64,000 nucleotides of DNA. It comes from Escherichia coli. GTDB taxonomy: Bacteria; Pseudomonadota; Gammaproteobacteria; Enterobacterales; Enterobacteriaceae. Location: the NCBI RefSeq assembly GCF_965641715.1, contig NZ_OZ282453.1. One strand, given 5' to 3'. The notes below the pieces were generated by a model that was not told the origin of the DNA, did no database searches, and saw nothing but the letters and a program-made list of their open reading frames with translations. Both the position numbers and the translations under genes were made by a program. Positions 5,207 through 55,090 of the stretch are shown in pieces; position 1 is the first letter of the stretch, and each line of letters opens with the position of its first letter.

Positions 5207-6106
5207 TTAACGCAATAATGGACAATCTGGTGGTAATCGACAACGCAACGCCGCCGGAAGTATTTCAATATGGAAGTTTTGCCCACTCAACGGTTCGCCA
5301 TCAAGATTAAAAGTGATTTCGTGTGGGGCTTGTATATCAAACCACGACGAAGCGCCTTCGATAATATTCGGGTTATCTTCGTCAGATTTTAAGGTTGATA
5401 CGAGAGCCGGAAGAATTTCATCGCCGGTAAAAATGCGCAGTTGCAGCAAGCCATCGTTAATTAACGCGTTCGGACACAATTGCTGACCGCCACCGGCCTG
5501 ACGCCCGTTACCAATACCAATGACCAGGGCGTCACCTTGCCAGTGAAAGTTTTCACCGCGGATTTCACAACGGTCCGGTTGCAGAGTATCCATGCGCATT
5601 AAGCCATGAATGATGTAAGAGACGCCACCCAGCGCGGCTTTTAATTTTTCCGGCGTTTCTGTGGTAATACGTGTCCCAAACCCGCCTGTCGCCATATTAA
5701 TAAAACAGGTTTGTTTGTTGACCTGCGCCATATCTATCGCAATGGCGTTACCGGCAATTGCCAGTTTCAGCGCCTTATCCAGTGCCTCAGGAATCCCTAC
5801 ACTGGTGGCAAAATCATTGGCGGTTCCTAATGGCAAAATTCCCAGCGCGGGTATGTTATCCCCCTCACACTGAATCAACGCCGTAGAAACTTCATTAATG
5901 GTGCCATCGCCACCACCGGCAATCACCGTTGCGACGCCCAACTTCCGGGCCTCCTCTACATATCGTGCGGCATCGCCTTTCTCCCAGGTGACCCGCACAT
6001 GGATCGTCATTCCTTCCTCACGCAACAGCATAATTGCTTCGCGCAATGGTAAATTGTCAGTACTTTTGCCATTAAGAATCAGTAAGCTGGCGGGAAATTC
6101 TGCCAT
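5207..6106 (-). CDS. yegS: Lipid kinase YegS (diacylglycerol kinase-like fold)
   Basis: 299-aa ORF with GGDGT motif; position next to gatR as in K-12. Confidence 0.85.
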
Positions 6107-38956: not shown

Positions 38957-38983
38957 AAAAAATAAGCCCGTGTAAGGGAGATT
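38957..38983. repeat. attR core aaaaaataagcccgtgtaagggagatt (matches the 27-bp P2 att core as recalled), overlapping cyaR 3' end
   Basis: Direct repeat with attL; identity to remembered P2 attP core. Confidence 0.75.
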
Positions 38984-39043
38984 ACACAGGCTAAGGAGGT
39001 GGTTCCTGGTACAGCTAGCATTTTATGGGTTATGTTTTTCAGC
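38957..39043 (-). ncRNA. cyaR: CyaR (RyeE) Hfq-dependent sRNA
   Basis: Reverse complement reads GCTGAAAAACATAACCCATAAAATGCTAGCTGTACCAGGAACCACCTCCTTAGCCTGTGTAATCTCCCTTACACGGGCTTATTTTTT, matching remembered CyaR. Confidence 0.75.
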
Positions 39044-39077
39044 GAAGCGGATGATAACCTTAATAAATGCAGCTGTA

Positions 39078-41907: not shown

Positions 41908-42630
41908 CTAAACGATGCGGCAGGCGTCGGCTTCCCAGCGGTAACCAACGCCGTAAACGGCGCGGATAAATGACTGTTCGGCGTCGAGAGATTCCAGCTT
42001 GCGGCGCAGGTTTTTAATGTGGCTGTCGATGGTGCGGTCGGTTACTACGCGGTAGTCGTCATAAAGATGATTGAGCAATTGCTCGCGGGAGAACACTTTT
42101 CCTGGTTCATGAGAGAGCGTTTTCAGCAGACGAAATTCCGCAGGCGTCAGGTCAAGCATTTTACCGCGCCATGAAGCCTGAAAACGACCTTCGTCGATAA
42201 TCAACGGGCTTTCAGCATCCTGTTGCTGCAACTCACGCTGCGGTTTGCAACGGCGCAAAATGGTTTTGACACGCGCTACCACTTCCCGTGGGCTGTACGG
42301 CTTGCAGATGTAGTCATCTGCGCCAATCTCCAGCCCCAGCAGGCGGTCGATCTCTTCGATTTTTGCTGTCACCATCACGATAGGAATGTCAGAAAAACGA
42401 CGAATTTCCCGGCACAGCGTCAAGCCATCGGTGCCAGGGAGCATCAGATCCAACAGGATCAGATCCGGTGGTGTCTGGCGCACATACGGCAGTACCTGAT
42501 CGCCGTGGCTGATAAGCGTCGGCGCATAGCTCGCAGCACGCAGATAATCAATGAGCAACTGCCCCAGCTTCGGTTCATCTTCCACGATCAAAATACGCGG
42601 TGTGTTTTCGTCGATTGGTAACTCGGTCAT
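41908..42630 (-). CDS. baeR: Envelope-stress response regulator BaeR (OmpR family)
   Basis: 240-aa receiver + winged-helix protein, coupled to baeS. Confidence 0.9.
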
Positions 42631-44030
42631 ACTTCTCTCTGTAAATCCCGTTCCAGCGGTAACTCTACTGTAATGCTTACCCCGCCAAAAGGCGAATGGG
42701 CAGCAATAATGCGGCCATTATGTGCTTCAACAATGTTCAGGCAAATCGCCAACCCCAGCCCGGAACCGCCGCTGGCACGGTTGCGGGAACCTTCGGTGCG
42801 ATAAAAACGTTCAAACAATTTTTGTAGCTGATCGTCACTGACACCTGGCGCACTGTCGGCAAAGGTCAGGCGCACCGTTTTGTCGTGCTGCTCGGCAGAG
42901 ATTTTCAGGCTGCCGCCGCTGTCAGTGTAGCGCAGGCTGTTTTCCAGTAAATTATTGAACAACTGCATTAAACGGTCGCGATCGCCAAATACGGTAATAC
43001 TGTCTGGCAGGGAAAATTGCAGTTTCAGGCCACGGCTGGCGAATCGTTCGCGAAATGCGCCGCCCGCCACTTCCAGCAGTGGGATCAAATCTACCGGTGC
43101 TTTTTGATAGGCGAGAGCGCCTTCATCAGACATCGACAACTGATGAAGATCGTCAACCAGTTTGGTCAGTGTACCGACCTCCGCCTGTAAAGACGCCACC
43201 GTCTCCGGCGTGAATTTGCGCACGCCATCCTGAATGGCTTCCAGTTCACCGCGCAGCACCGCTAATGGCGTACGCAGTTCGTGAGAAATATCGGCCATAA
43301 AATCGCGCCGCATTTGCTGGTTTTTCTCCAGCGTGCTGGCGAGCTGGTTGAAGTCTTGCGCCAGTTTGCCCAGTTCATCTTCACTGGTGGGCGTTACGCG
43401 GGTAGTGAAATCGCCCGCCGCCAGTTTGTGCGTGCCGTCCACCAGCCGTTTGACCGGGGCCAAAAGACCACGCGCCAGCAGAAAGGTGGCGAGCGCCGCG
43501 AGTAACGTTGCCAGGGCGACAATCAGCCAGCTGGTTTGCCGCTGTTGTTTATCGAAATTGATATCAGTATTGCGCGTTAACCGCTCAACGGGGGAGGCGA
43601 TCACCGCGCCAACTTCCGCACCGTTGACCAGAATGGGTCGCCGTGTACCGTCAGGTGGAATCGGCGCTCGCGGACCAACCAGCACTTTGTTGTTTTGATC
43701 AACCACCCAGAACTGGGTACGCCAGCCGTGCGGTGGCATACCCGGGCCGGGTTTATCTTCCGAATTATCGTGTTCAAATGAACGCAGGATCTGAAAGACA
43801 AAGCGATCATTGTTGCGCAGGAAGCGCCAGTTACCATGCTGCGCATACTGCTCGCCAAGCGCATCACTTAACAGTTGTAATCGCTGTTCATTACCATGCT
43901 TGATGTAATCAATAAAGCCACGCTCAAAACTGATACGCACCGCCCAGTGCATACTGATCAGCAAGACAATGCAGGTGGCGAAAATCGCCAGAAACAGTTT
44001 GCCGGTAATACCGGGTCGCCAGAACTTCAT
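42627..44030 (-). CDS. baeS: Sensor histidine kinase BaeS
   Basis: 467 aa with TM segments, HAMP, H-box (SHELRTP) and ATPase domain. Confidence 0.9.
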
Positions 44031-45442
44031 TGCGCGCTCCTTTTTCGCCGCGAAATAGCTACATTTTGATGCGTATCGTTCGGCACTCTGGCAAAGATGA
44101 ACGCCGGAAGGGCGATGATAAACGCCATGCTAAGCCAGGTGTACATAAAGACGGTTTGTGTGGTGCCGCTGTCGACGCTGACATGCTGCGAACCAAAAAG
44201 TCCCAGCAACAGCCCGGCGATGGTGACGCCGATACTCATCGACAATTGCATAATCATCGACAGCAGACTGTTGCCGCTGCTCGCCAGATTGTCCGGGAGA
44301 TCTTTCAGCGTCAGGGTGTTCATGGAGGAGAAACGGGTCGAGTTGACCATCCCTTGTAAAAACAGGACGAACGGCAAAACGTAGTACCAGCCCAACAGAG
44401 CGGTAGTCATAAACAACAGGGTGACCAGCGACAGACCCAGCGTGGTCGCTACCAGTACCCGACGATAACCAAAGCGATTCACCACCTGTACAACAATCCG
44501 CTTCATCCCCATGCTGCCAAGCACCATCGGGATCATCATCAGTCCGGCATGAAACGGTGAGAAGCCAAGGCCAATTTGCAGGAAAACCGGCGTCATAAAG
44601 GGCAACATGCCGCTACCGATACGTCCGGCAAAGCTCCCCGCCAGGCCCAGCGAAAAGGTACGAGTGCGGAACAGTTTCAGACTGAAAAGAGCGCGGTTGT
44701 TATTTCTGGCGTGCAGCAGATAAAGCACCAGTGCCACCACACCAACTGCGACCAGGCCAGTAATCGCCAGCGGCGATAAACCTGTACCTTTACTGCCGTC
44801 CAGCGCCAGGGTTAATACCGCCATGCCAACCGCCAGCAATAAAAAGCCGGAAAGATCAAAGCGCCGCGTCTGCATGGTGTAGTTCGGCATTAACATCAAT
44901 GTGGCGATCGCACCGATAATCCCCACCGGAATGTTGATCAAAAAGATCCAGTGCCACGACGCGTACTCCACCAGCAGACCGCCGAGCGCCGGACCGAGCA
45001 GCGGACCGACCTGACCGGGTAACGTGACAAAGGTCATCGCCGCCATATATTGCTCGCGCGGTACGATTTTCATCACCGTCAATCTGCCGACCGGCACCAT
45101 CATCGCGCCGCCAACGCCCTGTAACGCGCGTGCCAGCAACAGTTCGTTCAGCGTGCCGGAAAGCGCGCAAAACAATGAACCGAGAGTAAACAGCACGATG
45201 GCGGTAAAGAAAATATTGCGCACGCCGACTTTGTCCGCCAGCCAGCCGCTGGCGGGCAGCATCACCGCCACGGTCAGTACATAAGAGACAATGACCATGT
45301 GCATATGCAACGGACTTTCCCCGAGGCTTTGCGCCATTGAGGGAAGGGCGGTGTTTACGATGGTGGTGTCCAGCGACTGCATAAAGAAGCCGAAAGCCAC
45401 AATCCACAATTGCCAGCGGGTGCTGTCGGGAAGATCTGTCAT
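44027..45442 (-). CDS. mdtD: MFS transporter MdtD
   Basis: 471-aa polytopic membrane protein; operon position. Confidence 0.9.
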
Positions 45443-48400
45443 TTACTCGGTTACCGTTTGTTTAGGTTTACGCGAAAAACGCAGCCGCAGACGGTCGAAA
45501 AAGAGATATACCACCGGCGTGGTATACAGCGTCAGGAGCTGACTCATCACCAGACCGCCGACAATGGTGATCCCCAAGGGTTGCCGCAGCTCCGAGCCGT
45601 CACCGCCCGACAACACCAGCGGCAGCGCGCCAAACAGCGCCGCCAGGGTAGTCATCATAATCGGGCGAAAACGCAGCAGACAGGCCTGGAAAATAGCTTC
45701 CTGCGGCGTCAGGTTACCGTGCCGTTGGGCTTCAAGCGCAAAATCGACCATCATAATGGCGTTTTTCTTCACAATGCCGATTAATAGCATGATCCCTATC
45801 ATGGCGATTAGGCTGAACGGGGCATTGAACAGCTCCAGCGCCAGCAGCGCTCCAACGCCCGCCGAGGGCAGGGTGGAGAGAATCGTCAGCGGATGTACGT
45901 AACTCTCGTAAAGGATACCCAGCACGATATACACCGTGGCGATGGCGGCGATAATCAGGATCACCTGTGAGTTCATCGTCTCCTGGAACACCTGCGCCGT
46001 GCCGGCAAAACTGCCGCGCACCGTCGAAGGCACACCAAGCTGGGTCATTGCGCGGTCGATTGCCGCACTGGCGTCCGAGAGCGATTTTCCGGTCGGCAGG
46101 TTGAACGAGATGGTCGAGGCTGCCGATAATCCCTGATGATTCACCGATAGTGGGGCATTCGCCGGTTGCCATTTAGCGAAATACGACAGCGGGATCGCTT
46201 TTCCTTCGTTATTGATTACGAACATTTTTTCCAGCGCACTGATGTCCTGGGTATAGCGCGGATCCACTTCCATCACCACTTTGTACTGGTTCATCGGCTG
46301 GTAAATGGTCGAGATTTGCCGCTGACCGAAGGCGTTATTTAACAGGCTGTTGGCGGCCTGTACGTCGATTCCCAGCCGTGCCATGGTGTCGCGATCGTAA
46401 ACCAGATTCATCTCCGCGCCGTTATCCTGCTGATCGGAGTTCACGTCCGCCAGTTCCGGTAACGTTGCCAGTTTTTTGCGGATTTTCGGCTCCCATTCGC
46501 GCAGTGCCGCCAGGTCGTCGGATAACAACGTGTACTGGTAACTGGCGTTCGACTGACGTCCGCCAACGCGAATATCCTGTACCGCCATCAGGAACAGATT
46601 CGCCCCCGGTTCTTTCGCCAGTTTCACCCGCAGACGGTCGATAATTTGCTGCGCCGTTTCGCTGCGTTCGCCGCGTGGCTTGAGGGTGATAAACATCATC
46701 CCGCTGTTCACCCGCGAACCGCCGGTAAAGCCGGTGACATTATCCACTGCCGGATCGTCACGGATAATTTTCATGAAATCCTGCAATTTTCCGCGCATCG
46801 CCTGAAACGAAATACTCTGATCCGCCTGTATCCCGCCCATCAACACGCCGGTGTCCTGCTCCGGGAAGAAGGTTTTCGGGATCGAGATATAGAGCCAGAT
46901 ATTCAAAGCAATGGTGCCAAGCAGCACCACGCCCACCAGACGGGTATGATTGAGCACCCATTTCAGTGACTTACCATAGCCTTGTTGCAGGGCTACCAAC
47001 ATGCGACCAAAACCACGCAGTCGCTTTTGCTCGCGCGGCTTGCTGGCTTTCAGCATCCAGCCACACATCATTGGCGTTAATGTCAGAGAAACCAGCAACG
47101 AAATACCAATGGCGACAGAAAGCGTCACGGCAAACTCGCGTAACAGTCGGCCCGGCAATCCGCCCATCAACAGCAGCGGCAGGAACACCGCCACCAGTGA
47201 CAGACTCATCGACAGCACCGTAAAGCCGACTTCGCGAGTACCTTGTAGCGCGGCCTGTAGTGGTTTCATCCCCGCTTCCAGATGACGGGCAATGTTTTCC
47301 AGCACCACGATGGCGTCATCCACCACGAAACCAGTAGCGATGGTGAGCGCCATTAACGACAGGTTATTGAGACTGAATCCGCACAGGTACATCGCCGCAA
47401 ACGTACCAATCAGCGAAACCGGCACCGCAACGGCGGGAATAATAGTGGCGCGACCCGAGCGCAGGAATAAAAAGACCACCAGAATCACCAGCGCCACCGA
47501 GATAATCAGCGTTTGCTCGACTTCTTCCAGCGAGGCGCGAATGGTGGGGGAGCGATCCTGAGCAATTTGCAGATCAATCGCCGCCGGAATGGTCTCCTGC
47601 AACTCCGGTAATTTTGCCCGGATGCTGTCTACCGTCTGGATAATATTGGCTTCCGGCAGTTTGCGGATCATCAGCAAAATAGCCGGTTTGGCGTTGGTCA
47701 TCCCGGCGTTGCGCACATCCTGCACTGAGTCGGTTACCGTTGCCACATCGCCCAGACGAACCGCACCACCATTGTTGTAGTGAATAATCAGCGGCTGATA
47801 TTCAGCGGCGGTTTTCAGTTCATCGTTGGTCTGGATCTGCCAGCGGTGAGTGCCATCTTCCAGCGCCCCCTGCGGTTTACGCACGTTGGCATTGCTGATG
47901 GCAGTGCGTACGTCGTCCAGCGACACGCCCTGATTAAACAGCGCCTGCGGGTTCAGCCCGACGCGCACGGCGGGCAGCGAGCTGCCGCCGACATCGACAT
48001 CACCGACGCCGTCGATTTGCGAAATCGTCGGAGCCAGCTGCGTCGAGGCGAAATCGTACAATTCACCCTGCGAATAAGTATCGGAGGTTAGCGTCAGGAT
48101 CATAATTGGCGCATCCGACGGGTTCGCTTTGCGATAAGTCGGGCGGCTGGGCATCCCACTGGGCAGCAGACTTTGTGCGGCGTTGATCGCCGCCTGCACA
48201 TCACGCGCCGCACCGTTGATATCCCGGTCAAAATCAAACTGCAAAATAATACGCGTGCTGCCGAGCGAACTGCTGGAGGTCATTTCACTGACCCCGGCAA
48301 TGCGCCCAAGTGAACGCTCCAGCGGCGTGGCAACGGAAGACGCCATTGTCTCCGGCGACGCACCGGGCAGCGAGGCGCTGACCATAATCACCGGAAAATC

Positions 48401-48520
48401 GACCTGCGGCAGCGGGGCGACCGGCAGCATACGGAAACCCAGTATGCCGCACAGGGTAATGGCGACCGACAGTAAAATCGTCGCCACCGGGCGGTAAATG
48501 AAGAGGGCAAAAAACTTCAC
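45443..48520 (-). CDS. mdtC: RND multidrug efflux transporter MdtC
   Basis: 1025 aa RND permease, position. Confidence 0.9.
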
Positions 48521-51500
48521 TTACGCCTCCTCTTCATGGCGAGCAAAGCGACTTTTGGTCCACAATGCCAGGCGGTCGAATAGCAGATAAATCACCGGCG
48601 TGGTAAACAGAGTCAGCACCTGGCTGACAACCAGACCACCGACCATACCAATGCCTAACGGACGACGCAGTTCTGCGCCGACCCCGGTACTTAACATCAG
48701 CGGTAGCGCGCCGAGCAGTGCCGCCAGAGTGGTCATCAGGATCGGACGAAAACGCAGCAGACAAGCCTGATAGATGGCATCGCGCGGCGACATGCCTTGC
48801 TCGCGTTCGGCAGCCAGCGCGAAGTCGATCATCATGATGGCGTTCTTCTTCACAATACCGATCAACAAAATAATGCCGATAATCGCGATCACATCCAGTT
48901 CGCTACCGGCAATCAGTAACGCCAGTAGTGCGCCGACCCCTGCCGTGGGCAACGTCGAGAGAATGGTGATCGGATGAATAAAGCTTTCGTACAGAATACC
49001 CAGCACGATATACATCGCCACTACTGCCGCGACAATCAGCCAGACAGTACTGCCCAGCGCCGACTGGAAGGCGAGGGTGCTGCCCTGGAATTGTGTGGTG
49101 ATATCCACTGGCAGATTCAGCGTTTTTTCGGTATCCATAATCGCCTGCACCGCATCGCCCAGCGAATAGTTATCCGGCACGTTAAAGGAGATGGTCGTTA
49201 CCGGGAACTGATCCAGATGGTTGATGGAAAGCGGCGCAAAACGCTGCTCAACTTTGGCAATTGAGCTTAACGGCACCACGCCGCCATCGCTGCTGGTAAG
49301 GCGAATGGTATCCAGCGCCGCAAGCCCTGGGGTATTTTCGGTGTTGTGCTCCAGCACCACGCGATACTGGTTGGCCTGAGTATAAATGGTGGAAATCAGC
49401 CGCTGACCAAACGCGTTGTACAGGGCGTTATCGACGTCCGCCATGCTGATCCCCAGACGGCTGGCGCTGTCGCGATCAACATTGACATACGCCACCAGCC
49501 CTTTGTCCTGCCAGTCGCTGGAGACATCAGATAGCTGTGGCAGCTGCTGGAGTTTTTCCATCAACTGTGGCACCCAGGTACTGAGCGCATCCAGTGACGT
49601 GGCCTGCAAGGTAAACTGGTACTGGGTGCGGCTGACCTGAGTATCGATGGTCAGGTCCTGCGTTGGTTGCAGGAAGAGATCGACGCCCGGCACTTTATCC
49701 ACCGCCGTTTGCAGACGGGCGATGACTTTTTGCACCCGATCATCACGTTCATCCAGCGGTTTGAGGTTGATCTGTAAACGCGCACTGTTCAGCGACGGGT
49801 TAGTGCCATCAACGCCAACAAATGAGGTCAGACTTTGCACTGCCGGATCCTGCAAAATCACGTCCGCGACCTGGCGTTGCCGCTGGGCCATATTGGTAAA
49901 GGAGCTGGATTGCGGTGCCTGCAAAGTGCCCTGAATAATGCCGTTGTCCTGTACCGGGAAGAAACCTTTCGGAATGAACACCCACAATAGAACGCTAAGC
50001 AGCAGCGTGCTGAGCGCCACGCTTAAGGTCAGCCACGGATGATTCAGCACTTTCGCCAGTCCACGTCCATAGGCGGCGATTATCCTGTCGAACATTTTCT
50101 CCGAGGCACGGGAGAAGCGGTTCTGTTTACGCAGCGACTCCTGGCTGAGCATCCGCGCGCACATCATCGGTGTCAGGGTCAGCGACACCACCGCTGAGAT
50201 CAAAATCGCTACCGCCAGGGTAATAGCAAATTCGCGGAACAGTCGCCCGACGATATCGCCCATAAACAGCAGTGGGATCAACACCGCAATCAGTGAGAAG
50301 GTCAGCGAGATAATGGTAAAGCCGATTTCACCTGCGCCCTTGAGCGCCGCCGCCAACGGTTTTTCGCCTTTTTCGATATAGCGGGAAATATTTTCGATCA
50401 CCACGATGGCGTCATCGACCACGAACCCGGTGGCGATAGTTAACGCCATCAGCGTCAGGTTATTGATTGAAAAATCGAGAAACACCATAACCGCAAAAGT
50501 GCCGATTAACGACAGCGGCACGGCAACACCGGGAATGATGGTCGCCGGAATATTGCGCAAAAACAGGTAGATAATCATGACTACCAGCGCGATAGCCATC
50601 ATCAGCTCAAACTGGGTATCGTCGACGGATGCGCGGATATTGGTGGTACGGTCAGAAAGTACCGTCACCTTCACCGATTTCGGCAGACTCTCGGTGAGCT
50701 GCGGCAGCATCTGCCGGATGCTGTCGGCGGTGGAGATAATGTTAGCACCGGGCTGGCGCTGAACATTCATCACAATGGCCTGTTCTTTATTCGCCCATGC
50801 GCCGAGCCAGCTGTTTTCTGCACCTTGCTCTACGGTTGCGACATCGCCCAGACGAATCGGCGCGCCGTTCTGGTAGGCGATAATCAACTGGCGATATTCT
50901 TCCGCAGATTGCATTTGGTCATTCGCGGAAAGCGTAACCGCGCGGGAAGGGCCGTCGAGGCTACCTTTTGCAGAGTTAACGTTAGCGCCGGTAATGGCGG
51001 TGCGCACGGTTTCGCTGGTCAGGCCGAGGGCGGCAATCGCCTGAGCGTTAAGTTTGACGCGAACAGCCGGACGCTGCCCGCCGGAAAGCGTCACCAGGCC
51101 GACGCCGGAAATCTGCGAGATTTTCTGCGCGACGCGGGTTTCCACCATATCTTCCACTTGCGTCATCGGCATGGCTGTTGAGGTGACGGCGAGCGTCATG
51201 ATCGGCGGATCTGCCGGGTTCACTTTGCTGTAAACCGGCGGGTTAGGCAGATCGCTCGGCAACAAGTTGGTCGCAGCGTTAATCGCGGCCTGCACTTCCT
51301 GCTCGGCGACATCGAGCGGTAATGTTAGCTGGAACTGCAAAGTGATAACTGACGCACCGCCGGAACTTTGCGACGACATCTGTTTCAGGCCAGACATCTG
51401 CCCGAACTGGCGTTCGAGCGGCGCGGTAACGGCAGAGGTTATGACATCCGGGCTCGCACCTGGGTAGAGCGTGACCACCTGAATGGTCGGATAGTCCACT

Positions 51501-51643
51501 TCCGGCAGCGCCGAAACGGGCAGGGCGCGATAACCGATAATCCCGGCGAGTAAGATCGCCACCATCAACAGCGTGGTGGCGACAGGACGCATAATAAACA
51601 GGCGCGACGGGCCGCCTGTGCTGCTCGGGGGTAACACCTGCAT
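48521..51643 (-). CDS. mdtB: RND multidrug efflux transporter MdtB
   Basis: 1040 aa RND permease, position. Confidence 0.9.
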
Positions 51644-52890
51644 CAGGAGCGAGCTCCTTTTTTCGCGTATTCGCGGCTGGTGGCTTTCTCTTCCGGAGTG
51701 GTGGCGCTCTGGGCTTCCACCACTTCCACTTTCGCCCCTTCGGTCAGGCGATCAATGCCGTCTGTCACCACGCGATCGCCCGCAGAAATACCTGCGCGGA
51801 TCACCACTTTCTGACTGTCCTGAATGCCCGGCGTCACCAGATGTTTGCTGACCTTGTTTTCGCTATTCAGCACCCAGACAAAATGGCCTTCATTGCCCAT
51901 TTGCAGGGCGGCGGTGGGGATCACTACGGCGTTTTGTTCGGTGTCGACTAACATGCGCGCGTTAACAAACTGATTGGGAAACAGCGCATCATCCTGATTA
52001 TTAAAGCGTGCTTTCACTTTAATCGTACCGGTAGTGGCATCGATTTGGTTATCGAGACTTAACAGCGTGCCTTCACTTAATTTCTTCGAGTTGGTGCGAT
52101 CCCAGGCTTCTACCACCAGCGGTTTTCCGGCTTTTTGCGCCTGCACAACGGTAGCGATATCGCTTTCCGGCAGGGTAAAGAGCAAATCGATAGGATGCGT
52201 CTGGGTGATCACCACAATTCCGGTGGTATCACCACTGGAGATTTGGTTACCAACATCAACCTGCTTGAGACCAACGCGACCATCGACTGGTGCGGTGATG
52301 CGGCTCCAGTCGAGTTGCAGCTGTGCGCTGGCGACGCTTGCTTCATCAGCCTTAATGGTGCCTTCGGTTTCACTGACCAGCGCTTGTTGGGCATCCAGTT
52401 CCTGACGAGATACGAGATTGGTTTTTACCAGTTGTTGATAACGCGCCAGGTCACGGCGGGCGTTGGCAAGCGTGGCTTTATCTTTTGCCAGTTGGCCCTG
52501 GGCTTGTGCTAATGCAACTTTGAACTGGCTGGGGTCAATTTCTGCCAGTAAATCGCCTGCTTTGACCTGCTGGCCTTCCTGGAAATGTAACGCCATCAAC
52601 TGACCATCTACGCGGCTGCGCACCGTAACGGTGTTAGCAGCGGTAATGGTGCCAAGCCCGGTGAGGTAACGCGGAACTGCCTGTTCTACGGCGGTCGCCG
52701 CCTGAACCGGGGCTAATGGGCCGGAACGCATACCACGGCGACCACCCGCTGGCGATTGCTGCGCTTGTTTCGTCGCCCCTGGGGCTGCACTCTGGGAGTC
52801 ATTGCGGCCTTGCCAGAACCAGAATGCGGCGATGGCGGCGATAACCACCACGATTACGATTACCCAACGGGATTTATAACTACCTTTCAT
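51643..52890 (-). CDS. mdtA: Membrane fusion protein MdtA (415 aa)
   Basis: Start at MKGSYKSRW with TM anchor; upstream extension of the listed ORF rejected. Confidence 0.85.
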
Positions 52891-53120
52891 CGTTAAGAGT
52901 TTCTCTTCCTGAAACGTTTCGCGGAATGATACTAGTGTAGCCAGCCAATAAGGGAGAAAAATGGAGGAATTATGAAACACTATCGGGAATCGTCTGAATG
53001 GCGGGCACATTTGCGAGCACGCATCCAGTAATAACACAGGAAACTATTTTATCTACGCGTTAGCGATAGACTGCTTGCATGGCGAAAGGAGGTAAGCCGA
53101 CGATTTCAGCGGGACGCTGA

Positions 53121-53265
53121 AACGGGAAAGCCCCTCCCGAGGAAGGGGCCATAAATAAGGAAAGGGTCATGATGAAGATACTCATCATCGTGGTGCTCTT
53201 AGTGATTAGCTACCCAGCATACTAAGACTACCAGGGCGGGGGAACCCCCGCTCTACCCTCACTCC
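53121..53265 (-). ncRNA. Sib-family antisense sRNA antitoxin (copy 1), approximate ends
   Basis: Antisense to ibs copy 1; minus-strand hairpin ggcccctt..gaggggc + U-tract to the left of ibs start; ends estimated. Confidence 0.4.
53169..53225 (+). CDS. Ibs-family type I toxin peptide, variant MMKILIIVVLLVISYPAY
   Basis: 18-codon hydrophobic ORF with Ibs pattern. Confidence 0.6.
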   Translation: MMKILIIVVLLVISYPAY

Positions 53266-53448
53266 TGAAAGTATGCCTTCACGTTCAGAATGTCAATCCG
53301 CAGGCTTTGCAGTCTGCGATCCTGCCAGCAAATATTCTTTGCGAGACGTTACGCAATAATCACACTTGAAACTATTTTATCCGCAAGTCAGCGATAGACT
53401 GCATACAGGGCGAAAGGAGGTAAGCCGAAGATTTCAGCGGGACGCTGA

Positions 53449-53593
53449 AACGGGAAAGCCCCTCCCGAGGAAGGGGCCTTAAATAAGGAAAGGGTCATGA
53501 TGAAGTGGATCATCATCGTGGTGCTCTTAGTTATTAGCTTGCCGGCTTACTAAGTCATCAAAGCGGGGGAAACCCCGCTCTACCCTCACTCCT
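53449..53593 (-). ncRNA. Sib-family antisense sRNA antitoxin (copy 2), approximate ends
   Basis: As copy 1, by repeat register. Confidence 0.4.
53497..53553 (+). CDS. Ibs-family type I toxin peptide, variant MMKWIIIVVLLVISLPAY
   Basis: 18-codon hydrophobic ORF with Ibs pattern. Confidence 0.6.
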   Translation: MMKWIIIVVLLVISLPAY

Positions 53594-53775
53594 GAAAGTA
53601 TGCCTTCACGGTCAGATTGTCAATCCGCAGGCTTTGCAGTCTGCGATCCTGCCAGCAAATATTCTTTGCGAGGCGTTACGCAATAATCACACTTGAAACT
53701 ATTTTATCCGCAAGTCAGCGATAGACTGCATACAGGGCGAAAGGAGGTAAGCCGAAGATTTCAGCGGGACGCTGA

Positions 53776-53920
53776 AACGGGAAAGCCCCTCCCGAGGAAG
53801 GGGCCTTAAATAAGGAAAGGGTCATGATGAAGCTACTCATCATCGTGGTGCTCTTAGTCATAAGCTTCCCCGCTTACTAAGACTACCAGGGCGGGGGAAC
53901 CCCCGCTCTACCCTCATTCC
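53776..53920 (-). ncRNA. sibB: SibB-like antisense sRNA, approximate ends
   Basis: Antisense to ibsB; by repeat register. Confidence 0.4.
53824..53880 (+). CDS. ibsB: IbsB toxin peptide MMKLLIIVVLLVISFPAY
   Basis: Matches remembered IbsB. Confidence 0.7.
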   Translation: MMKLLIIVVLLVISFPAY

Positions 53921-54103
53921 TGAAAGTATGCCTTCACGGTCAGATTGTCAATCTGCAGGCTTTGCAGTCTGCGATCCTGCCAGCAAATATTCTTTGCGAG
54001 ACGTTACGCAATAATCACACTGGAAACTATTTTATCCGCAAGTCAGCGATAGACTGCATGCATGGCGAAAGGAGGTAAGCCGACGATTTCAGCGGGATGC
54101 TGA

Positions 54104-54251
54104 AACGGGAAAGCCCCTCCCGAGGAAGGGGCCTTAAATAAGGAAAGGGTTATGATGAAGCACGTCATCATACTGGTGATACTCTTAGTGATTAGCTTCC
54201 AGGCTTACTAAGAACACCAGGGGGAGGGGGAAACCTCTCCTAACCCTCACT
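54104..54251 (-). ncRNA. sibA: SibA-like antisense sRNA, approximate ends
   Basis: Antisense to ibsA; by repeat register. Confidence 0.4.
54152..54211 (+). CDS. ibsA: IbsA toxin peptide MMKHVIILVILLVISFQAY
   Basis: Matches remembered IbsA. Confidence 0.7.
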   Translation: MMKHVIILVILLVISFQAY

Positions 54252-54430
54252 TCTGAAATTATGTCACTCCGCCCTTAGTGTCAATCGACGGCTCTCCGTT
54301 CTTGCGAGGCGAATAGCAAAATTTTCTGCGCCGCCGGGCCTAATTCTGAAAGTTTCTTCGTTTGCTCTTATTTCATTATTGCAATCGGTATGATACCGGA
54401 CCTCAATAATTCTCTAAGAAAGGATTTCTT

Positions 54431-55090
54431 ATGAGCGAACAAATCACGTTTGCCACCAGCGATTTTGCCAGTAACCCGGAACCACGTTGCCCCTGCATTC
54501 TGCTGCTGGATGTATCTGGCTCGATGAGCGGCAGACCTATTAATGAACTTAACGCCGGATTGGTTACCTTTCGTGATGAACTGCTTGCTGATCCGCTGGC
54601 TTTAAAAAGAGTGGAACTCGGCATTGTGACGTTCGGCCCGGTGCATGTGGAACAACCCTTTACCAGCGCCGCTAACTTTTTCCCGCCCATCCTGTTTGCC
54701 CAGGGGGATACGCCTATGGGGGCCGCCATTACCAAAGCCCTGGATATGGTTGAAGAGAGGAAACGTGAGTACCGCGCAAATGGTATTTCGTATTATCGCC
54801 CGTGGATTTTCCTGATCACCGATGGCGCTCCAACCGATGAGTGGCAGGCTGCCGCCAACAAAGTGTTTCAGGGGGAAGAAGATAAGAAGTTTGCCTTCTT
54901 TTCCATCGGTGTTCAGGGGGCGGATATGAAGACTCTGGCACAAATCAGCGTTCGTCAGCCTTTGCCACTGCAGGGATTACAATTCCGTGAACTGTTTAGC
55001 TGGTTATCCAGTTCGCTGCGTTCGGTTTCCCGCTCCACGCCGGGAACGGAAGTTGTGCTGGAAGCGCCAAAAGGCTGGACGTCAGTGTGA
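54431..55090 (+). CDS. yegL: vWA-domain protein YegL
   Basis: 219 aa with MIDAS-like DVSGSMSG motif. Confidence 0.85.

Follow-up and report, generated by a model that had tools for sequence, protein, structure and literature searches.

An Escherichia coli mdtA-yegL region with four tandem ibs/sib type I toxin-antitoxin units, a common copy-number variant

Introduction

The Ibs/Sib systems of E. coli K-12 are type I toxin-antitoxin systems in which Ibs is toxic on overexpression and is repressed by Sib (PMC2943612, PMC4147584). Sib pairs with the ibs mRNA, which blocks translation initiation and is followed by RNase III cleavage (PMC4147584 review; PMC2943612). SibC possesses two independent domains for recognising the target, TRD1 and TRD2, and each of them alone is enough for repression (Han et al. 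2010, PMC2943612). TRD1 of SibC spans +46 to +68 in the loop of P5 and targets codons about 11-17, and TRD2 spans +99 to +115 in J1/7 and targets the translation initiation region, with the P6 loop also being needed (PMC2943612). The K-12 Sib RNAs were found to repress their cognate ibs alone, ibsA excepted (PMC2943612). Strict cognate specificity is established solely for the five copies of K-12.

The number of Ibs genes differs among strains. Six were reported in O157:H7 EDL933 compared with five in K-12, and seven in O157:H7 Sakai, S. boydii CDC 3083-94, S. sonnei Ss046 and E. fergusonii (Fozo et al. 2010, PMC2887945), and the same study discussed lineage-specific ibs duplications (Fozo et al. 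2010, PMC2887945). At the locus considered here, between yegL and mdtA, K-12 MG1655 carries exactly two units, sibA/ibsA and sibB/ibsB, as an earlier note on the present DNA had correctly stated; in the annotation of NC_000913, IbsB is only a 'putative toxic peptide'. The earlier note had read four units in the E. coli stretch of 64,000 nucleotides analysed here (hereafter the window) and had taken them as an expansion in which the antisense RNAs diverged alongside each toxin.

Results

In the window, the mdtA-yegL intergenic region holds four ibs/sib units of ~328 bp arranged in tandem (53029-54284). Tandem Repeats Finder returned them as one tandem array at 53029-54263 with a period of 328, 3.8 copies, 91% matches and a score of 2015. 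The approximate unit boundaries are 53029-53356 (unit 1), 53357-53683 (unit 2), 53684-54011 (unit 3) and 54012-54284 (unit 4), and unit 4, the last one, is truncated at its own Sib -35 box. Units 1 and 2 are 90% identical, units 1 and 3 93%, and units 2 and 3 94.5%; unit 4 is a divergent A-type unit that is ~82% identical across the shared part. The array is flanked as in K-12 by mdtA on the left (51643..52890, minus strand), identified from the ORF translation and the annotation under database matches, and by yegL, which encodes a vWA domain protein, on the right (54431..55090, plus strand). Its orientation and intergenic region are those of the K-12 ibsA-sibA/ibsB-sibB locus.

The ibs ORFs were located by reading the sequence and by a scan for short ORFs initiated with ATGATG. 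All four are on the plus strand: MMKILIIVVLLVISYPAY in unit 1 (53169..53225), which is of the I4/Y15 type, MMKWIIIVVLLVISLPAY in unit 2 (53497..53553), which is W4/L15, MMKLLIIVVLLVISFPAY in unit 3 (53824..53880) and MMKHVIILVILLVISFQAY in unit 4 (54152..54211). The ORFs have 18-19 codons, are highly hydrophobic and intact, and possess both an SD sequence and a start codon; upstream of each stands AAGGAAAGGG-N2-ATGATG, and every one of them is nested, in antisense orientation, inside a match to SIB_RNA. The ORF of unit 1 equals that of the first Ibs of O157:H7 PV15-279, WP_012767742.1 (0/57 ORF differences), and the peptide of unit 2 is one residue (F15L) away from WP_012767741.1. Codon for codon, unit 3 carries K-12 ibsB (0/57 differences) and unit 4 carries K-12 ibsA (0/60 differences). 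The ORFs are thus exact or near matches to RefSeq entries named 'type I toxin-antitoxin system Ibs family toxin'. The earlier note had read all four peptides correctly letter for letter; its identification of copies 3 and 4 as IbsB and IbsA holds for both protein and codons, and copies 1 and 2 are distinct variants, as it had said, with I4/Y15 and W4/L15 peptides. Alignment to the mapped ibsC and ibsD start sites, worked out from the primers listed by Han et al. (PMC2943612), gave no confident position for the ibs promoter, as A/B-type units carry an 18-nt insertion that breaks the alignment. The conserved TAGACT is no more than a candidate -10 of this promoter.

On the minus strand, Rfam gave four full-length matches to RF00113 SIB_RNA (model positions 1-147) with scores of 127.2-142 bits and E-values of 1e-27 to 1e-30, the gathering score of the model being 56 bits. 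A scan of the whole 64-kb window revealed no further SIB copies outside the array. Four ibs ORFs and four full-length SIB_RNA matches confirm the four repeat units that the earlier note had counted, and the window carries four complete ibs/sib type I toxin-antitoxin units.

To set the ends of the Sib RNAs, the annotated SibA-E of K-12 were aligned with the minus strand of each unit. The predicted Sib of unit 1 is 136 nt long (53125..53260; Rfam match 53154-53296, 137.7 bits; -35 TTGACA at 53291-53296) and that of unit 2 is 135 nt long (53453..53587; Rfam match 53482-53623, 127.2 bits; -35 TTGACA at 53618-53623), both on the minus strand. On the same strand, unit 3 has a predicted SibB-like RNA of 136 nt (53780..53915; Rfam match 53809-53951, 137.8 bits; -35 TTGACA at 53946-53951) and unit 4 a predicted SibA-like RNA of 143 nt (54106..54248; Rfam match 54137-54284, 142 bits; -35 TTGACA at 54279-54284). 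The unit 3 Sib has 3 differences from K-12 SibB. The unit 4 Sib is identical to K-12 SibA in its core and has 11 differences, all in the 3' part; its 3' end, which comprises the distal part of TRD2 and the terminator, is B-like. Over the 5'UTR/Sib-3' segment, unit 4 shows 8/81 differences to K-12 versus 1/80 to O157 and A30. Unit 2 has the lowest Rfam score of the four and the weakest P5 stem, in which two pairs are non-canonical.

All four predicted Sib promoters, of the sigma-70 type, have a perfect TTGACA -35, a 17-nt spacer and a G start 7 nt downstream of the -10. The -10 reads TACTTT except in unit 4, where it is TAATTT. Compared with the promoter of K-12 SibB, the differences are confined to the spacer. 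By homology, the start position and promoter elements of the four Sibs align with the annotated 5' ends of K-12 SibA and SibB, and the terminator hairpin GGCCCCUUCCUCGGGAGGGGCU, also assigned by homology, is conserved in all four units as in K-12. A generic consensus scan for promoters and terminators flagged no Sib promoter or terminator, because the Sib -10 boxes fit the consensus at just 3/6 positions and the tails of the terminators contain few U residues. We rejected this negative scan as a sign that Sib promoters are absent; the verified Sib genes of K-12 have equally weak -10 boxes and equally U-poor tails. The earlier note had named a lack of promoters in the extra copies as a finding that would overturn its reading, and we found the -35, -10, start and terminator kept in 4/4 units. 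One predicted fold is common to all four Sibs, with a closing stem P1, P2, a long P5 hairpin, a P6 hairpin and the terminator. The P6 hairpin is formed by AUGAUGA/UCAUCAU, and the UCCUUAUUUA segment is single-stranded in this fold. Literature searches returned nothing relevant on named extra copies (sibF/ibsF, sibG/ibsG), nor any study of how Sib is expressed in O157 or in strains that have 3-4 units.

To count units at this locus in other genomes, queries consisting of the two flanks joined alone were used, in which matched pieces merge if the gap is no more than half the query length plus 500 bases. The sample was the complete E. coli genomes having the locus (n = about 5416-5422). The flanks merged over ≤760 bp (≤2 units) in 2309 genomes, over ≤1100 bp (≤3 units) in 4480 and over ≤1420 bp (≤4 units) in 5106, and the classes were confirmed by the match spans in listed rows, such as 1123, 2131 and 3098 bp. 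In this census, which describes a clinically biased database and not the species, about 43% of genomes have two units or fewer, about 40% (about 2171) have three, about 11.5% (about 626) have four, and about 6% have longer or IS-disrupted arrays. A one-unit example is ET776, with ibsA alone. The idea that arrays of more than four units are common was rejected, as both examples examined with flanks >1,420 bp apart turned out to be IS insertions (ISEc13, IS150) and not five units. In RefSeq, three or four Ibs family toxin genes are already annotated at this locus in many strains. The four-unit array is a common, annotated and published copy-number variant, real but ordinary. The term 'expansion' used in the earlier note is not supported, as it takes K-12 for the baseline: 1-4 units occur across E. 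coli, with about 12% of genomes carrying four.

The cores of the first two units, I-type (ATA CTC) and W-type (TGG ATC), are also present in O157:H7, A30, E. whittamii, Escherichia sp. MOD1-EC7003, Escherichia sp. E1V33 and E. coli E69, cryptic-clade genomes included. Since these cores occur in other Escherichia, the alleles are old and did not arise as recent local copies of B. Among other four-unit arrays are the allele orders IY-WF-LW-A, LY-WF-IY-A and LY-LY-B-A, the last of these with a partial internal duplication.

Upstream of the ATG, the B unit of K-12 is the same as window unit 1 (0/140 differences), and its ORF is that of window unit 3 (0/57 differences). One unequal crossover in the conserved 5'UTR/RBS segment would turn an I-W-B-A array into exactly the B-A array of K-12. 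Because the K-12 B unit combines the upstream part of unit 1 with the ORF of unit 3, and I/W cores are present in relatives, K-12 looks contracted, and on these comparisons a contracted array is more likely for K-12 than the ancestral state. The mosaic argument is weakened by the fact that whichever unit stands first has to include the mdtA-proximal boundary. The outgroup Escherichia species that were found, few in number, have 1-2 units only, and it is on these few outgroups that the choice between loss in K-12 and gain here rests.

Units 2 and 3 of the window show no difference upstream of the ATG (0/140 nt) and 16/98 in the ORF and 3' UTR taken together (Fisher p = 1.4e-7). Homogenised flanks around distinct and old cores are the pattern that a tandem family with unequal crossing-over and gene conversion would leave.

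Compared with 5,426 complete E. coli genomes, the core of unit 2 reached 94.5% at best over its full length, and two scans of metagenome contigs found neither its exact 40-mer nor its exact 31-mer pattern. The common W-type allele has F15 and another 3' UTR; window unit 2 has L15 and synonymous changes at codons 12-13. Relative to the W units of O157 and A30, it shows 3/57 differences in the ORF and 6-7/41 in the 3' UTR. Outside the immediate flanks, the complete E. coli genome closest to the window has just 98.0-98.7% identity to it, so the source lineage is absent from that set. Unit 2 is simply a new allele within a known family.

The recognition domains were then compared between the units of the window and between the K-12 Sibs. 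In TRD1 (23 nt), window units have 3-5 differences versus 4-9 between K-12 Sib pairs, and in the P6 hairpin segment (22 nt, stem and loop) they have 1-6 versus 0-7. In TRD2, the window units have 0-2 differences versus 3-10 between K-12 Sib pairs. The Sibs of units 2 and 3 share a 54-nt perfect run to the 3' end that includes TRD2, and all other unit pairs differ in TRD2 by 1-2 nt. Divergence among the window Sibs is confined to TRD1 and the P6 loop. The variation in TRD1 is largely synonymous, falling in codons 12 (GTG/GTT/GTC), 13, 16 (CCA/CCG/CCC) and 17, a distribution that fits possible selection, or at least persistence, at the RNA level.

The earlier note had the antisense RNAs diverging alongside each toxin. 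This implies no co-evolution, because Sib is the reverse complement of ibs, lying on the opposite strand over the whole ORF, and divergence of the antitoxin is automatic. Cognate specificity is not to be assumed either: TRD1 alone differs (3-5/23 nt), and TRD2 differs by just 0-2 nt. With TRD2 near-identical across units, the array departs from what cognate-specific pairs would look like in the model of Han et al. 2010. Since TRD2 is near-identical in all four units, cross-repression is plausible, and partial cross-repression among units would be expected, first for units 1 and 3 and for units 2 and 3. The longest perfect run as a predictor of cross-reactivity was tried and rejected, since a 36-nt run is common to K-12 SibD and SibE, which are nevertheless reported to be specific.

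Discussion

The locus in the window is very probably an allele, with four units, of the tandem ibs/sib type I toxin-antitoxin array found on the chromosome between mdtA and yegL in E. coli and its relatives. The plus strand of each unit encodes a hydrophobic Ibs membrane peptide of 18-19 residues, and the minus strand a predicted Sib RNA of ~135-143 nt extending across the entire ORF and the ribosome-binding site. By homology with K-12, Sib would be made constitutively from the TTGACA-17-TA(C/A)TTT promoter. Pairing of Sib with the ibs mRNA would begin through loop contacts, with TRD1 in the P5 hairpin and TRD2 in the single-stranded J1/7 over the RBS, and would then block translation and trigger RNase III cleavage, leaving the toxin silent. 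Unit number (1-4) is a common polymorphism, for which unequal homologous recombination between units that are ~90-95% identical is the simplest explanation; the flanks of the units are homogenised, and the Sib/ibs core keeps the old distinct I, W, B and A alleles. The data show the anatomy of the window array, its place in the family by sequence and structure, the intact signals, the unit counts across genomes and the mosaic pattern; that it is expressed and toxic, how repression works and which way copy number changed are what we infer.

The ibs/sib family, its tandem layout and its variable number have already been documented, and hundreds of RefSeq genomes carry an annotated array of four units, so the array has little weight as a discovery. 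A by-product of the census is that the two-unit state of K-12 is a minority-to-plurality variant, not the norm.

A more specific proposal, which we regard as tentative and rather doubtful, is that concerted evolution keeps TRD2, the RBS and the terminator near-uniform and leaves TRD1 and the P6 loop hypervariable. The Sibs of the array would then form a partly cross-protective pool in which units are dispensable, and unit 2 would be an uncatalogued specificity allele. If either TRD suffices, as it does for SibC, no single unit may be needed, and the quick turnover of unit number between one and four across E. coli would be accounted for. TRD2 homogenised in long arrays offers a concrete and cheap test of Sib specificity in natural multi-copy arrays.

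The array could instead have arisen by lineage-specific expansion from a two-unit ancestor followed by co-divergence, which would have yielded four insulated, strictly cognate Sib/Ibs pairs. The two units of K-12 and the 1-2 units of the outgroup Escherichia species agree with such an origin, as do the differences between units at 3-5/23 TRD1 positions and at 1-6 positions of the 22-nt P6 segment; many of the TRD1 differences are synonymous, as selection for discrimination at the RNA level would give, and K-12 Sibs repress only their cognate ibs, ibsA excepted (PMC2943612). However, I/W cores are common to O157:H7, A30, E. whittamii and cryptic-clade genomes, which argues for old alleles, and three- and four-unit arrays together are commoner than the K-12 state. 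Insulation of the pairs is also hard to reconcile with a TRD2 that is identical in units 2 and 3 and differs by 1-2 nt in other pairs, compared with 3-10 nt in K-12, when either TRD alone is enough for repression (Han et al., PMC2943612). Expansion with co-divergence is therefore improbable. That the extra units are decaying non-functional duplicates (pseudogenes) or a repeat assembly artefact is far less probable still: unit 2 scores lowest against Rfam and two of its P5 pairs are non-canonical, neither the 5,426 complete E. coli genomes nor the metagenome contigs yielded its allele, and other strains have IS insertions and partial duplications in the same array, but 4/4 ORFs are intact with SD and ATGATG starts, 4/4 Sib genes keep promoter hexamers, start position, fold and terminator, the 5-10% divergence between units allows unambiguous assembly, and about 626 finished genomes have the same four-unit length.

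As a four-unit allele of the known array, the locus is closest to the K-12 ibsA-sibA/ibsB-sibB locus (formerly QUAD repeats; RF00113), with which the window units share the Sib promoter, start and fold. The K-12 locus has two units and the window has four, and K-12 SibA and SibB differ at 4 TRD2 positions, whereas TRD2 is almost uniform across the window array. Strain A30 has the same unit order as the window, I-W-B-A, and is 98.7% identical over 2.2 kb. O157:H7 PV15-279 possesses three units (I, W, A), and its unit 1, which has the same ORF as window unit 1, shows 1 difference from it in the whole 328-bp unit, located in the 3' UTR. Sib overlaps the entire ORF of its toxin gene, whereas Rdl and Orz pair with the 5' UTR. 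The ldr/rdl (LDR) and zor/orz systems likewise combine a small hydrophobic toxin with an antisense RNA, in tandem in one intergenic region, and their copy number is also variable among strains (PMC2887945), but their sequences are unrelated to ibs/sib.

Genomic context and similarity of the window

The first 25,000 nt of the window (1-25000) carry genes of a P2-like prophage, including those for a replication endonuclease and a terminase ATPase subunit, together with a gene for a DUF3696 protein and the gat (galactitol PTS) genes. Among 5,426 complete genomes of E. coli, only 40 cover at least 80% of this segment, with a best identity of 98.0%. For the mdtBCD-baeSR stretch (42000-52000), the most similar complete E. 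coli genome reaches 98.4% identity; therefore, the lineage of the window is without a close representative in the complete E. coli collection. This lineage may belong to Shigella or to a sparsely sampled branch of Escherichia. The minus strand at 38960-39045 gives a full-length match to the sRNA CyaR/RyeE (RF00112), scoring 100.7 bits where the gathering threshold is 47.

Boundaries and integrity of the ibs/sib array

The sequence directly to the left of unit 1 (TTTGCGAGCACGCATCCAG, 53008-53028) is similar to the ends of the internal units (TTTGCGAGACGTTACGCAA), therefore the repeat reaches approximately 20 nt beyond the Tandem Repeats Finder boundary toward mdtA. This leftward extension is perhaps a remnant of another unit.

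The array is interrupted by the IS elements ISEc13, IS150 and IS421 in some E. coli strains, as in E. coli FDAARGOS_144 (locus L013), strain 571 (L014) and strain E400634 (match H38). E. coli HH45 carries two identical MMKLLIIVVLLVISYPAY ORFs with a spacing of only 153 nt (positions 1061-1270 of its locus, L019), and this pair is a partial internal duplication rather than one of a whole 328-bp unit.

Repeated elements within the units

Two sets of short ORFs recur in the array. ORFs of 42-48 aa lie on the minus strand at 53060-53188, 53388-53516, 53715-53861 and 54043-54171, starting inside the P6 hairpin of the Sib RNA (an ATGATG palindrome) and continuing through the terminator, and 28-aa ORFs lie on the plus strand in the spacers at 53273-53359, 53600-53686 and 53928-54014. 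No SD sequence was seen, and the simplest explanation for the conservation of these ORFs is that it follows from the repetition of the DNA itself.

A conserved inverted repeat, TTTCAGCGGGACGCTGAAA, is located directly past the Sib terminator and within the ibs 5' region, at 53098-53116 and at the equivalent position in each unit. It may represent a structure of the ibs 5'-UTR, and it is common to the ibs/sib units of K-12 and those of the window.
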